Shown here: positions 32,558-34,375 of the stretch, piece by piece
Numbering within the stretch: position 1 is the stretch's first letter
How the letters are laid out: every line of letters begins with the position of its first letter
Virus genome (UHGV): UHGV-0268713
Strand: one strand, 5' to 3'
DNA from: a virus
DNA: 34,690 nucleotides
The notes under the pieces: model-generated
What the model was told of the DNA's origin: nothing
The model's database searches: none
The model's input: only the letters and a program-made list of their open reading frames with translations
Position numbers and translations under genes: made by a program

Positions 32558-33502
32558 ATGACGAGTATAGCAACAGCGGTATCTACTATCAACGTGCCAT
32601 TCCACGGCGCAGAACTTTATGTTGTCAATCACAACGGAGAACCGTACACCCCAATGAAACCTATCGTTGAAGGCATGGGTATGGATTGGGCTTCACAGTT
32701 TACGAAAATGAAGCAGCGGTTTAAAACCTGCATTGTGAAAATCACAATGCAGCTTCCTGGGGATGAACAGCGCCGTGAGATTATTTGTTTGGCACTTCGC
32801 AAACTTGCTGGCTGGTTGCAAACCATCAGCCCTAACAAAGTCCGCCCTGAAATCCGCGACAAGGTAATCCAGTATCAGGAAGAGTGTGACGATGTGCTCT
32901 ACGAGTACTGGACTAAAGGCCATGTGGTTAACCCACGCAAAGCTAAAAAGGCGTTGCCGGGTAAAATAACCACTGAACAGCAGGAAGCCATTAAACAACT
33001 CGTCATGAGTCGCGGTCAGTCTCTACCAAAAGAAAAACAGGCTAAGGCGATGATCACCATGTGGTCGTCACTGAAATCTCATTTTGGCTGTTCGTACAAA
33101 GAAATTGGTGAAGATCAATTTGCCGAAGCGTTGTCTCTTGTTGCTCGGGTTCCGCTTGAAGGGGAGTATCTCCCTGCTGGATCTGCATCAGAGAATGATG
33201 AAGTGGCAGTCAAGATGTTAGATGCGCTTCGTGAGGCAATTAAAACACAGACAAAATGTTATGGTTATCCACTGAAGCCCGGCTACCGCAGCCTGATTCA
33301 TTCGCCGTCTGGTGTTCTCGGCCTGACGGAGAACTCACTGCTGATGAATTTGCTGAACCAGTTACAGGAAGACGGGCATGACGTATCGGGCGCGGCGGCG
33401 GAACTGACCACCATGTTCTGCTACATCGTCGGTGTGAGTAAATGCCTGCGTGATATCCAGACCCACGCGGAGTACATCAACGACAAGGCAGGGTTCTTCT
33501 GA
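32558..33502 (+). CDS. Antirepressor paralog 2 (AntA-like N-terminal domain plus KilAC-type C-terminal domain)
   Basis: 314 aa; its C-terminal ~75 aa are identical in protein to antirepressor 1; sits downstream of the arc-like gene as in P22 immI. Confidence 0.85.
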   Translation: MTSIATAVSTINVPFHGAELYVVNHNGEPYTPMKPIVEGMGMDWASQFTKMKQRFKTCIVKITMQLPGDEQRREIICLALRKLAGWLQTISPNKVRPEIRDKVIQYQEECDDVLYEYWTKGHVVNPRKAKKALPGKITTEQQEAIKQLVMSRGQSLPKEKQAKAMITMWSSLKSHFGCSYKEIGEDQFAEALSLVARVPLEGEYLPAGSASENDEVAVKMLDALREAIKTQTKCYGYPLKPGYRSLIHSPSGVLGLTENSLLMNLLNQLQEDGHDVSGAAAELTTMFCYIVGVSKCLRDIQTHAEYINDKAGFF

Positions 33503-33540
33503 CAGAACGGCGGCACAGGGATGTGCAAAACGGAACTATC

Positions 33541-33552
33541 GTGACATGTCAC
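33541..33552. promoter_or_regulatory. 12-bp perfect palindrome GTGACATGTCAC, copy 3
   Basis: Exact 12-mer, immediately 5' of a terminator hairpin. Confidence 0.4.
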
Positions 33553-33578
33553 AGGCCGCTTTCGCGGCCTTGTTTTTA
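33553..33578 (+). terminator. Rho-independent terminator after antirepressor 2
   Basis: AGGCCGC-TTTC-GCGGCCT followed by TGTTTTT. Confidence 0.6.
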
Positions 33579-33737
33579 ACGAATGCCACCGCCGCCAGGG
33601 CGGGAATCCGCAGAACGCCCACCGCAGCGGGAGCCGTCAGCGGCAGTATCGCTGTCGTGCTGACAACGACCGGCAAAGGCCTGAGTTGAAGCTACCAGAG
33701 ACAACAAAACGAACAGTGCAGCAAATGCTTTTTTCAT
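33576..33737 (-). CDS. Candidate small secreted peptide (53 aa with signal peptide)
   Basis: MKKAFAALFVLLSLVASTQAFA looks like a Sec signal peptide with an AxA cleavage site; the predicted mature 31-aa peptide is Gly/Arg-rich with two Cys. Upstream promoter-like TTGACG, 16-17 nt, TATAGA; no clear Shine-Dalgarno. Confidence 0.3.
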   Translation of the reverse strand: MKKAFAALFVLLSLVASTQAFAGRCQHDSDTAADGSRCGGRSADSRPGGGGIR

Positions 33738-33807
33738 TGTGAAATTTCCATCTATAAGCCACCTCAATGTGGCGTCAATGAGTGTAGCACTGACTTTTGT
33801 TTCGTCC

Positions 33808-33830
33808 ACAAAAAAGCCCGCGCTGCGGGC
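33808..33830 (-). terminator. Rho-independent terminator for the accessory operon
   Basis: GCCCGC-GCT-GCGGGC hairpin (33816-33830) followed on the minus strand by TTTTTTGT. Confidence 0.55.
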
Positions 33831-34375
33831 TATTCCTTCCATTTATCAGAAAAAAGATCTTCTTCTAAAGGCATTGGTTCTGTTTTTGTTTTCTCAAAGA
33901 ATTGATAACTGATAGTGATTGCTGCCTCTTTAAACTCTTCTTGCTCAGTTATGTTGTGAGCATCTGCGTCAACAAAAAACATAACCAGCGCATCACGATT
34001 GTGATTTACCGAATAAACTAAAAAGCAATCACTTGTTGGTATGCATTTTACTTGTACAGACGCTATATTTTTCCATGCATCCCAAGATGATTTTTTACCA
34101 GTGTGTTTTTTATCACTATCTTCTGGAATATAGTCTTGGTTATCGACATGAGTATGCCTGACATTTAGTTTAAGCATTTCTGTCGGACGAGCAAATGCAG
34201 CATCTTTACCAAGAGATGGATGGTATCCCGTTTTCCAATACTGGGTAAAGGCATCAGATACTTTCTTCAGCTCAAGATCAGATGCACAAAGGGCCGAGAA
34301 ATTTTGCGTATGCAATACTCGACCCTTATATCTGACAATTTGATTTTTATCATTCTGCGACGCAGACGAACTCAT
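33830..34375 (-). CDS. Hypothetical protein (181 aa), AT-rich accessory gene
   Basis: ATG at 34375 with an AAGGA Shine-Dalgarno; low GC; no confidently recognised domain. Weak resemblance of HTH and LVY...H segments to YafO-type toxins is unverified recall. Confidence 0.55.
   Translation of the reverse strand: MSSSASQNDKNQIVRYKGRVLHTQNFSALCASDLELKKVSDAFTQYWKTGYHPSLGKDAAFARPTEMLKLNVRHTHVDNQDYIPEDSDKKHTGKKSSWDAWKNIASVQVKCIPTSDCFLVYSVNHNRDALVMFFVDADAHNITEQEEFKEAAITISYQFFEKTKTEPMPLEEDLFSDKWKE

Follow-up and report, generated by a model that had tools for sequence, protein, structure and literature searches.

The window, meaning the whole 34,690-nucleotide stretch of DNA from the virus genome UHGV-0268713 that was analysed, carries a minus-strand open reading frame (ORF) at 33576–33737 which, judged by comparison with its homologues, is a genuine and strongly conserved 53-codon prophage gene. 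The same comparison identifies its product as a free-standing copy of a widespread bacterial extracytoplasmic mini-domain of 25 residues that occurs in Gram-negatives. Taken as a whole, the balance tips slightly in favor of an explanation in which a self-contained accessory cassette (a moron), located in the immunity/accessory region of a TL-2011b-like Uetakevirus prophage, would give rise to an exported disulfide-loop peptide that binds to the cell envelope.

The ORF runs from ATG at 33737–33735 to TAA at 33578–33576 and translates as MKKAFAALFVLLSLVASTQAFA followed by GRCQHDSDTAADGSRCGGRSADSRPGGGGIR, the junction between the two parts being the predicted cleavage point. The predicted mature peptide (33579–33671, minus strand) has 31 residues, a mass of 3.06 kDa, a pI of 8.1, and a GRAVY value of -1.19. 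It is rich in Gly, Arg, Asp, and Ser, and the two cysteines are C25 and C38. A first-pass annotation of this DNA had described a 53-aa minus-strand ORF with a 31-aa Gly/Arg-rich tail and two Cys, and the sequence bears out each of these points. The start codon at MKK is backed by in-frame stops lying 2–6 codons upstream in homologues. An 88-aa in-frame extension from an ATG at 33842 was dropped, since it overlaps the upstream gene and its terminator and lacks conservation. Longer upstream starts are also annotated in phrog_3117 and several metagenomic clusters, where they are unconserved.

Selection on the coding sequence was analyzed across 45 loci. Synonymous divergence (pS) was 0.55–0.95, near saturation, and pN was 0.00–0.17 among the gammaproteobacterial copies and 0.00–0.36 across all 45 loci. 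In the core of one copy (L015), nucleotide identity was only 80%, yet pN was 0.00. The entropy of the core at codon positions 1, 2, and 3 was 0.69, 0.46, and 1.64. This pattern of change identifies purifying selection acting on the protein. The ORF was also intact in 80/80 viral contigs examined; all 80 loci are 100% identical, so they add abundance and no diversity. Synonymous-biased substitution in relatives, which the first-pass annotation had named as a check on the ORF, is therefore found, and its suspicion that the ORF might be an artefact is refuted by the purifying selection together with the intact reading frames.

Several features of the locus would suit such an artefact, with the region serving as a mere terminator pair or a small non-coding RNA: the Shine-Dalgarno sequence is weak, the ORF is very short, the unit is compact (~220 nt) with a structured leader, and a few alleles are disrupted, namely the frameshifted L146 and one other, P0057. 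We consider this reading extremely unlikely, because conservation depends on codon position and the protein is almost unchanged while synonymous change is saturated. Furthermore, homologues have strong Shine-Dalgarno sequences (e.g., AGGAGG in L140), the same peptide serves as a domain of longer proteins, and the frameshifted L146 copy belongs to a decaying prophage remnant in which pinE is frameshifted as well. Rfam gave no match at the locus either; its sole match at E ≤ 1 within 33000–34690 was a chance RsmV fragment outside it.

The gene is enclosed by two hairpins. On its upstream side, the intrinsic terminator of a YafO-like gene (33815–33831, minus strand; 7 pairs, 6 of them G-C, then a T run) forms the left edge of the cassette, and homology with other phages begins at this terminator. 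Directly past the stop codon lies the GC-rich hairpin AGGCCGC-GAAA-GCGGCCT (33553–33570). It has a T run on the plus strand only and is thus the terminator of the convergent ant gene. On the peptide strand it lacks a proper U run, being poor in this copy; a GC-rich hairpin nevertheless stands right past the stop in every homologue and is invariant in the E. coli and Klebsiella Uetakevirus phages, and the peptide transcript probably has its 3' terminus there. The span of 33553–33830 that had been marked out earlier as one unit fits the hairpin-bounded unit (33831–33815 on the minus strand to 33553–33570) almost exactly, and it also agrees with the DNA block common to other phages at 33540–33831.

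The gene has a GC content of 0.59–0.62, compared to 0.35–0.40 for the upstream YafO-like gene and about 0.46 for ant. Among Uetakevirus phages and E. coli prophages the cassette has changing neighbours (YafO-like, DUF2335, DUF4760, or hypothetical genes), and in phiV10 the gene is absent with only a 57-nt remnant left. Other copies are found in lambdoid and other phage types, among them one after a RelB/YafQ pair. A further copy lies directly downstream of a cI/LexA-family repressor, a position that hints at expression from the repressed prophage, and there is one on a plasmid beside IS26 and one among housekeeping genes of Agrobacterium vitis. Of 5,426 complete E. coli genomes, 426 (about 8%) contain at least 80% of the cassette; CE10, ST648 isolates, and the TL-2011b host NIPH-11060424 are among the carriers. 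Relatives of the peptide are found on 305 viral contigs, so it looks like common prophage cargo.

GC contrast, an own terminator, and patchy presence with variable neighbours are among the marks of a moron (Juhala et al. 2000, as summarised in PMC3594210), and this architecture is visible directly in the compared sequences. The earlier idea of lysogenic-conversion cargo fits a gene that stands as a separate unit, with a terminator hairpin on either side, within a temperate phage's accessory region. A role as partner of the adjacent YafO-like toxin in a type II toxin-antitoxin system was rejected, since an intrinsic terminator separates the two genes and DUF2335, DUF4760, or some other gene often takes the upstream place. 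A 59-aa ORF overlapping the start of the YafO-like gene is more likely to be its partner.

For the promoter, 15 aligned upstream regions were compared. The only invariant columns were the T, the A, and the final T of a TAnnnT hexamer, which is TACACT at 33786–33781 in the window and keeps a fixed distance to a leader stem-loop. With the preceding TGc, it would form a weak extended -10 element, TGcTACACT (33789–33781, minus strand), from which an mRNA of about 220 nt may start. A weak -35-like TGGACG (33803–33808, minus strand) lies 16 nt upstream and may complete the promoter; it is weakly conserved, with TGGATG, TGGGCG, TTGGGG, or TTGGTA in homologues. This candidate promoter scores 8/12, below the threshold of the consensus scan, which called no promoter within 33300–34690.

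The leader stem-loop is GCCAC-attgag-GTGGC (33758–33773, minus strand). A hairpin lies 3–7 nt past the -10 element in 13 of the 15 homologous upstream regions, with differing stem sequences. The MAFFT alignment misplaced several hairpin arms, and the upstream regions were therefore re-aligned by means of a covariance model, a step that favors the structure in the pair counts. In this structure-fitted alignment, 89% of cells pair, compared to 25–59% in slid controls, and both partners vary in 4 of 5 pairs. The covariation score, again from the alignment fitted to the structure, was reached by 0 of 500 shuffles. Taken one sequence at a time, the hairpins surpass shuffles by no more than a modest margin (median fraction 0.065). 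The predicted transcript would carry a conserved stem-loop at its 5' end and the GC-rich hairpin past the stop at its 3' end.

A different promoter had been proposed before, consisting of TTGACG (33778–33773) and TATAGA (33756–33751) on the minus strand with a spacer of 16–17 nt. Both hexamers exist, 16 nt apart, but they are unconserved in the 14 homologous upstream regions, the pair was left uncalled by the consensus scan, and TATAGA ends in A where a -10 element has its final T. TTGACG sits between the conserved -10-like TAnnnT and the conserved stem-loop, TATAGA is aligned to a leader CTACACA box, and the pair as a whole (33751–33778) overlaps the stem-loop. The hexamers are therefore probably not functional as such, and the comparison most likely points to the -10 element at 33786–33781 instead of TATAGA.

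Translation would begin at the ATG at 33737 through a weak Shine-Dalgarno-like GGAAA (33745–33749, minus strand) located 8–10 nt before it. The absence of a clear Shine-Dalgarno sequence had been pointed out at first pass and is confirmed here: only GGA (33749–33747) is available, and the predicted anti-SD pairing is -3.3 kcal/mol, compared to -10.3 kcal/mol for a homologue carried by a different phage. At this position, homologues show GGTAAG, GGAAAG, or AAGGA.

The N-terminal 22 residues (33672–33737, minus strand) have the layout of a signal peptide, with a positive n-region MKK, an h-region AFAALFVLLSLVA (hydropathy peak 2.92 over 10 residues), and a c-region STQAFA in which A20-F-A22 is followed by Gly and small residues stand at -3 and -1, as for Sec export and signal peptidase I. 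A helix at residues 2–22 was predicted by AlphaFold2. By a crude rule, a hydrophobic core with a small -1/-3 site was present in 182 of 190 family members, and the N-terminal residues vary in sequence across the family while the architecture is retained. In Nostocales relatives the signal is swapped for a lipobox (I-T-S-C or V-T-S-C) and a Gly/Ser linker, and in other relatives the module is placed after Pro/Thr-rich linkers. Because the N-terminus varies or is replaced while the mature part is near-invariant, the N-terminus appears to be a targeting device and the module the functional part. The N-terminal export signal read at first pass is thus supported by its n/h/c regions, its AxA site, and the family-wide architecture. 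A lipoprotein processed by signal peptidase II was ruled out for the window peptide, since F-A-G-R before C25 is not a lipobox ([LVI][ASTVI][GAS]C).

Hydrophobic residues 4–17 are long enough to span a membrane, and together with the predicted helix they would also allow the signal to stay uncleaved. The product would then be a tiny type II membrane protein with a cytoplasmic N-terminus, one helix, and a 31-residue periplasmic tail. It would work from the inner membrane, perhaps by blocking the entry of DNA as other small exclusion proteins do. This is what the names "transmembrane anchored protein" and "membrane associated protein" in the databases imply, one subfamily has the module beside a true membrane helix, and HK97 gp15 provides an earlier example of a small moron protein inserted in the membrane (PMC3594210). 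However, A-F-A at -3/-1 and the Gly behind it make up a classical signal peptidase I site with small residues there family-wide, and the anchored subfamily has its anchor C-terminal to the module, with a cleavable-looking N-terminal signal still present. The hydrophobic region is free to vary and gives way to lipoprotein signals or other domains in relatives, so it does not belong to the conserved functional unit. An uncleaved signal is accordingly judged quite unlikely. The product is most likely a Sec-exported, hydrophilic 31-residue disulfide-loop peptide that acts in the periplasm.

The conserved core module covers C25–G49 (25 residues; 33591–33665, minus strand), as delimited by near-invariant columns, codon-position entropy, and the comparison of pS with pN. 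Its pattern C-x4-D-x-A-x-DGSRCG-x-R-x4-RPGG, with a Cys spacing of C-x12-C, is near-invariant from E. coli prophages to Alphaproteobacteria and Cyanobacteria. The 57 genome loci collected belong to Gamma-, Alpha-, and Betaproteobacteria, Cyanobacteria, Bacteriovorax, and Polyangiaceae, and clustering of the family gives 692 groups at 90% identity and 566 representatives at 50%.

The module is widely distributed and used in varied settings: it occurs alone, in tandem, behind a lipoprotein anchor, beside a membrane anchor, and fused to exported proteins. Fusions include an SNase domain with the module at its C-terminus (P0253), T2SS-T3SS_pil_N, a pilus-secretin N-terminal domain, with the module (P0260 and P0264), and the module with a membrane helix and a domain of roughly 150 aa. 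One 805-aa protein with 11 weak repeats (P0275) was judged spurious, as it resembles a chitin-binding-type Cys repeat. When the mature part was modelled alone by AlphaFold2, a beta-bridge and a short turn were predicted with a pLDDT of 81–85 for residues 1–20, and confidence for the module was moderate in general (pLDDT 70–85).

The window peptide is 100% identical to gp43 of TL-2011b (YP_007001994.1), to WP_000708858.1, and to an annotated product of E. coli HCM-28C-2, and it matches phrog_14503 with an E-value of 2.3e-40 over residues 1–53 of 53. The family name "transmembrane anchored protein" reflects only the hydrophobic N-terminus, and the databases otherwise say hypothetical protein. 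The peptide had no match in Pfam, NCBIfam, PADLOC, or the PDB by sequence or fold, and 35 diverse members gave nothing meaningful against Pfam at E ≤ 10. Weak matches to T4 Spackle, Lysis_col, and LPAM were limited to one or two members each, were caused by the signal peptide, and were discarded. Literature searches by family name, accessions, and sequence strings returned no relevant paper on the family.

A secreted toxin, a signal, or a bacteriocin-like peptide had been suggested at first pass for this small product with an export signal and two Cys that is carried on mobile elements. The present data leave that suggestion unsupported, and we rate it very unlikely. All-against-all comparison of ORFs within 3 kb of the gene at 57 loci revealed no recurring neighbour gene, enterobacterial prophage genes recurring in 3–4 loci only, and thus no recurring immunity, dedicated exporter, modification, or receptor gene beside it. 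The signal is Sec-type rather than a double-glycine leader, and the mature peptide, besides being very hydrophilic, has no amphipathic character. A 3-kDa peptide exported via Sec alone remains periplasmic, which does not suit a toxin or signal. PADLOC also gave no match. A class II microcin or bacteriocin in particular was rejected on the Sec-type signal and on the neighbours, a YafO-like gene and ant, neither being recurrent in the 57 loci. Toxins and signals usually diversify, whereas the core hardly changes from phylum to phylum and also serves as a domain of larger proteins. Such conservation in chromosomal genes and larger proteins is more in keeping with a module for binding or structure than with a toxin or signal that diversifies.

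Under the favored explanation, the precursor would enter the Sec pathway and would most likely be cut by signal peptidase I after Ala22 (AFA|G). C25 and C38 would most likely be joined by DsbA to close a 12-residue loop. The peptide may then bind a conserved component of the envelope, in the most likely mode a metal ion such as Ca2+ or a constituent of the cell wall or outer membrane, and this binding could alter an envelope property of the lysogen, for example its resistance to superinfection. A broader and rather doubtful proposal sees in the C-x12-C "DGSRCG" unit an ancient mini-domain, so far undescribed, with which Gram-negatives bind a ligand in the periplasm. Temperate phages would have taken up a free copy in the form of a moron that competes for, or masks, the envelope ligand used by host module proteins or incoming phages, thereby remodelling the envelope or excluding superinfection.

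The module was also compared with the Excalibur domain (PF05901). In an unlikely reading, the module is a divergent Excalibur-type calcium-binding loop, and the peptide would bind Ca2+ in the periplasm or need it to fold. The two have a common layout, namely an extracytoplasmic module of about 30 residues with one Cys pair and D-x-x-x-D-G-x-x-C, and hhalign places DrAsDGSRCG against DRDGDGvaCe in exactly that register. SNase-Excalibur fusions are known; the staphylococcal-type nuclease P0253 likewise has the module at its C-terminus, and two Excalibur fragments carry the source label "micrococcal nuclease". The alignment used (A5) was built from proteins carrying PF05901. Against these real sequences homology was unsupported, with an hhalign probability of 0.8% and an E-value of 0.074 over 11 columns. 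PF05901 was matched neither by the window protein (E ≤ 1) nor by 35 diverse members (E ≤ 10). Furthermore, two of the expected Ca2+ ligands are invariantly lost, with Ala32 in place of the middle Asp and Gly39 in place of the Glu behind the Cys, and the first Cys lies 12 residues upstream rather than about 30.

These results turn a doubtful 53-codon ORF into a well-supported gene. They also place its product in a cross-phylum family of tiny exported modules still absent from the protein-domain databases. If the module is indeed a general envelope-targeting or metal-binding unit, it would aid the annotation of hundreds of hypothetical proteins in Proteobacteria and Cyanobacteria. The 3-kDa peptide is accessible by synthesis, which makes a ligand search inexpensive, and lysogen phenotypes offer a second line.

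Among known systems, the peptide is simply a member of PHROG 14503/phrog_3117, the NCBI "transmembrane anchored protein" family, with nothing that differs, and the Uetakevirus phages of E. coli and Klebsiella carry the gene at an equivalent position. Excalibur resembles the module as a short extracytoplasmic unit with one Cys pair that can be attached to staphylococcal-type nucleases. However, its motif is DxDxDGxxCE rather than the invariant DxAxDGSRCG, and the Cys spacing is shorter in the module. The retrieved Excalibur proteins with an organism name were all Gram-positive except for one Pseudomonadota metagenome bin, whereas the module was found only in Gram-negative lineages.

Small prophage-encoded envelope proteins such as lambda Bor and Lom, phi80/N15 Cor, T5 Llp, P22 SieA, and T4 Sp/Imm are products of accessory genes, often expressed in the lysogen, that alter the surface or block superinfection. 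The peptide is likewise small, envelope-targeted, and encoded by an accessory gene. Those proteins are lipoproteins, outer-membrane barrels, or integral membrane proteins and are not known to be conserved across phyla. The peptide, by contrast, is predicted to be a soluble disulfide-loop mini-domain that is also present within the own proteins of bacteria. HK97 gp15, the first described moron product, is a small superinfection-exclusion protein with chromosomal YebO homologues (PMC3594210), and it shares with the peptide gene its small size, its moron architecture, and bacterial homologues outside prophages.

The peptide gene lies on the minus strand, from the ATG at 33737-33735 to the TAA at 33578-33576, and encodes MKKAFAALFVLLSLVASTQAFAGRCQHDSDTAADGSRCGGRSADSRPGGGGIR. 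Its region, on a Uetakevirus-type prophage, was 99% identical to Escherichia phage TL-2011b, in which the equivalent ORF, gp43, is annotated as a 'putative transmembrane anchored protein'. The same 53-aa product is annotated by PGAP in E. coli chromosomes, and the peptide matched PHROG 14503 ('membrane associated protein', moron category) with an E-value of 2e-40. It had no match in Pfam, NCBIfam, or PADLOC, Rfam gave none over the locus, and no paper containing the family name in a bacterial context, the accession numbers, or the sequence was found in the literature. The gene itself is not a discovery, as a hypothetical-protein annotation already exists. What is new is its status as a bona fide moron and the membership of its product in a cross-phylum, undescribed mini-domain family.

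Homologues of the peptide were found in Escherichia, Shigella, Citrobacter, Klebsiella, Cronobacter, Franconibacter, Pectobacterium, Dickeya, and Salmonella. The 25 core codons (C25-G49) were compared across 45 loci, with pS measured against the window copy. The pS values were near saturation at 0.55-0.95, whereas pN was 0.00-0.17 in the gammaproteobacterial copies and at most 0.36 across all 45 loci. Column entropy at codon positions 1, 2, and 3 was 0.69, 0.46, and 1.64, and the Buttiauxella copy (L015) kept an identical core protein despite 80% nucleotide identity over the core. Broken alleles were uncommon. The ORF was intact and identical in all 80 viral contigs fetched, out of 305 with relatives of the peptide, and one frameshift was found, a 1-base deletion at codon 8-9 in E. 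coli O55:H7 DEC5E (locus L146, 1523-1795). Because the adjoining invertase gene pinE is likewise frameshifted, this locus, next to yfhH, is read as a decaying prophage remnant; PGAP calls a spurious 90-aa ORF in another frame over its peptide gene.

The first-pass annotation had described a minus-strand ORF with an export signal and a Cys tail, or else an ORF artefact, and had named synonymous-biased substitution in related copies as a check and frameshifts or stops in relatives as counter-evidence. The former was found, the latter were rare, and the description was largely right. The peptide ORF is a genuine, strongly constrained protein-coding gene; the pS and pN values refute an artefact, and an RNA-only locus is poorly supported as well. 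The start at MKK is supported by several homologues with in-frame stops 2-6 codons upstream, and by a strong, correctly spaced AGGAGG before the same ATG in one E. coli variant from a different phage. As noted earlier, the window copy has no clear Shine-Dalgarno sequence: the sole candidate is GGA at 33749-47, with a predicted anti-SD pairing of -3.3 kcal/mol. An 88-aa in-frame extension of the ORF was rejected, the extension showing no conservation.

The precursor opens with a positive n-region; a hydrophobic core of 13 residues follows, reaching a hydropathy of 2.92, and residues 1-22 close with A-F-A at -3 to -1. In the AlphaFold2 prediction, residues 2-22 form a helix and the remainder is a non-helical loop. 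Among family members, the sequence of the N-terminal part is free to vary but its signal-peptide architecture is kept, and the protein is nearly invariant from C25 onward. A crude rule recognised both a hydrophobic core and a small -1/-3 site, 0-2 residues ahead of the first Cys, in 182 of 190 members. Judged from these features, the product looks like a cleaved, exported peptide, and a real gene for an exported small protein is very probable. In the E. coli periplasm, signal peptidase I cleaves signals and DsbA oxidises Cys pairs; the precursor would be cleaved by signal peptidase I and C25-C38 oxidised by DsbA. Cleavage to a soluble periplasmic peptide is likely. A less likely alternative is an uncleaved, membrane-anchored form, as the name of gp43 implies. 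The predicted mature peptide (residues 23-53; 31 residues, 3.06 kDa, pI 8.1, GRAVY -1.19) is hydrophilic with only one aliphatic residue, so that 'transmembrane' in the database name covers the signal sequence only.

The mature peptide is a free-standing copy of a widespread mini-domain, hereafter the module, with the consensus C-x4-D-[RT]-A-[AS]-D-G-S-R-C-G-x-R-[AS]-x3-R-P-G-G; in most proteins the C-terminus lay one residue beyond it. Profile searches yielded 692 clusters (90% identity) and 566 representatives (50% identity), and in none of them did a Pfam domain cover the module. When one genome per species was scanned, 57 loci emerged, all in Gram-negative lineages. These included Tolumonas and Vibrio besides the Enterobacterales among Gammaproteobacteria, many Alphaproteobacteria (Mesorhizobium, Rhizobium, Agrobacterium, Bradyrhizobium, Methylobacterium, Devosia, and others), Cyanobacteria (Dolichospermum, Anabaena, Nostoc, and others), Rhodoferax, Bacteriovorax, and one Polyangiaceae genome. 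The contexts ranged from prophages to a housekeeping region in Agrobacterium vitis, with no recurring neighbour gene across the 57 loci.

The commonest architecture was the module alone after a signal peptide. In Nostocales it follows a lipobox and a Gly/Ser linker, and other proteins had tandem copies or the module, a linker, and another exported domain. The module also occupied the C-terminus of exported proteins after Pro/Thr-rich linkers, as in the staphylococcal-type nuclease P0253 and the pilus-secretin N-terminal domain proteins P0260 and P0264. Bacteria use it on the outer side of the cytoplasmic membrane. Such modularity is expected of a small binding or targeting unit, and the module may well be one. 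In a further architecture, the module is followed by a membrane helix and a cytoplasmic domain of ~150 residues. In this subfamily (P0152, P0157, P0158, P0168, P0184, P0188, P0204), the module ends in RPGGRNPDTDW, and the ~150-residue domain has a common '...G.NEYDAA..Y...Q...' stretch and no Pfam match. Its receptor-like architecture might show what the module senses.

For the promoter, 15 divergent upstream regions of peptide gene homologues were aligned. The only invariant columns were the T, A, and final T of one hexamer. In the window this -10-like hexamer is TACACT (33786-33781, minus strand; TACAAT, TATGAT, or TACGCT in homologues), preceded by TGc, with a weak -35-like element, TGGACG (33808-33803, minus strand), 16 nt further upstream. 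A GC-rich hairpin of 5-7 bp with differing stem sequences began 3-7 nt after the hexamer in 13 of the 15 regions; the window has the leader stem-loop GCCAC/GTGGC at 33773-33758 (minus strand). In an alignment fitted with a covariance model, which biases these figures toward structure, 89% of cells paired, both sides had changed in four of the five pairs, and no shuffle equalled the covariation score; slid controls paired in just 25-59% of cells. A 5' stem-loop can stabilise E. coli mRNAs. On the most economical reading, a weak, extended -10 promoter would drive the peptide gene from a start near 33774, giving a leader of ~37 nt with the stem-loop at its 5' end and a transcript of ~220 nt.

The first-pass annotation had instead placed a sigma70-like promoter at TTGACG (33778-33773) and TATAGA (33756-33751). 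Both hexamers are present, 16 nt apart, but the assignment is probably wrong. A consensus scan called no promoter at any point in 33300-34690, the TACACT element included. TTGACG falls after the -10 element and ahead of the hairpin, TATAGA aligns with a CTACACA box, and neither is conserved as a promoter hexamer. In most enterobacterial copies (L003-L015) the box (CTTATAGA in the window, 33750-33757) is conserved, lying after the stem-loop and before the Shine-Dalgarno region.

Two GC-rich hairpins enclose the ORF: at 33831-33815 (minus strand) stands the intrinsic terminator belonging to the YafO-like gene upstream, and at 33553-33570 a hairpin lies directly 3' of the peptide stop. The latter has a T run on the plus strand only, and the scan therefore assigns it, as a terminator, to the convergent antirepressor gene ant (32558-33502, plus strand). 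A perfect 12-bp palindrome, GTGACATGTCAC, follows at 33541-33552; copies from E. coli, Klebsiella, Kluyvera, and Buttiauxella share it unchanged, whereas the sequence past it diverges. It might act as a further terminator element or bind a protein. The DNA common to phages (phiv142-3, HEMP4, EC.W1-9, and others) runs in most from 33831 to 33540, hairpin to hairpin; in phiv142-3 and HEMP4 the homology begins slightly upstream, at 33856. This cassette (33540-33831) was covered to at least 80% in 426 of 5,426 complete E. coli genomes. GC content was 0.59-0.62 in the peptide gene, 0.35-0.40 in the YafO-like gene, and ~0.46 in ant.

In Uetakevirus phages of E. coli and Klebsiella, the peptide gene keeps to one place, the end of the accessory cluster that follows the tailspike, and its neighbours on both sides differ. 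Elsewhere it follows a RelB/YafQ pair in another phage type, lies beside a pin invertase, or adjoins IS26 on a small plasmid. The gene lies in a mobile cassette with a terminator hairpin at either end, probably has its own promoter, and bears the hallmarks of a bona fide moron as summarised in PMC3594210.

In the region 33830-34529 (minus strand), the YafO_toxin-like gene (181 aa, ATG 34375) matched PF13957 at E 1e-5, just above the cut-off, and its start is overlapped by a 59-aa ORF of PHROG 6685 (34350-34529, minus strand). The layout resembles a toxin-antitoxin pair; PADLOC matched neither gene. The segment with these two genes and the peptide gene is bracketed by an inverted repeat (arms 33488-33526 and 34653-34690; 19 nt at 100% and 16 nt at 94%, 1126 nt apart). 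The arms are the 3' end of antirepressor-type genes ('...AGFF*') plus the 3' UTR, from ant (plus) and a Bro-N gene (minus), and the repeat might serve in inversion or module exchange. Phage phiV10 (L154, 2455-2570) retains only the equivalent of 33540-33596, that is, the last ~20 nt of the peptide gene, the hairpin, and the palindrome. The '...AGFF*' end of the phiV10 Bro-N region directly abuts this remnant at a GGCGG(C/A)GG repeat, which occurs at both junction sites in the window. The phiV10 arrangement thus looks like a short-homology deletion that took out the 59-aa ORF and the YafO-like gene together with most of the peptide gene.

As to function, the peptide would be released into the periplasm and then oxidised. 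It may bind a conserved envelope component or a metal ion, and binding could benefit the lysogen, for example by excluding other phages. Any particular ligand or phenotype is unlikely to be the right one. The toxin or bacteriocin proposed earlier was unsupported, and a signal is likewise poorly supported. In a lambdoid prophage of E. coli 2015C-3121 (L147, 1691-3744), 97 nt separate a cI/LexA-family repressor gene from the peptide gene downstream of it. In lambda, the position after the repressor is occupied by lysogen-expressed exclusion genes such as rexAB. An SDH-family Clp-fold serine protease gene lies downstream of the L147 copy.

The family profile had no match among PDB sequences, and AlphaFold2 modelled the loop with moderate pLDDT (70-85), a beta-bridge T31-R37, and a short turn at residues 39-41. 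A less likely alternative is an Excalibur-like calcium loop, as D-x-A-x-D-G-S-R-C-G in the module resembles DxDxDGxxCE, the motif of the Excalibur calcium-binding domain. Compared by hhalign with real PF05901-carrying sequences, the two motifs fell in the same register over 11 columns, but with a probability of 0.8% and an E-value of 0.074. No family member matched PF05901, and two expected Ca2+-binding positions are an invariant Ala and Gly in the module family. Homology to Excalibur is therefore not supported. A functional analogy is possible, both being disulfide-stapled small extracytoplasmic loops that occur on nucleases.
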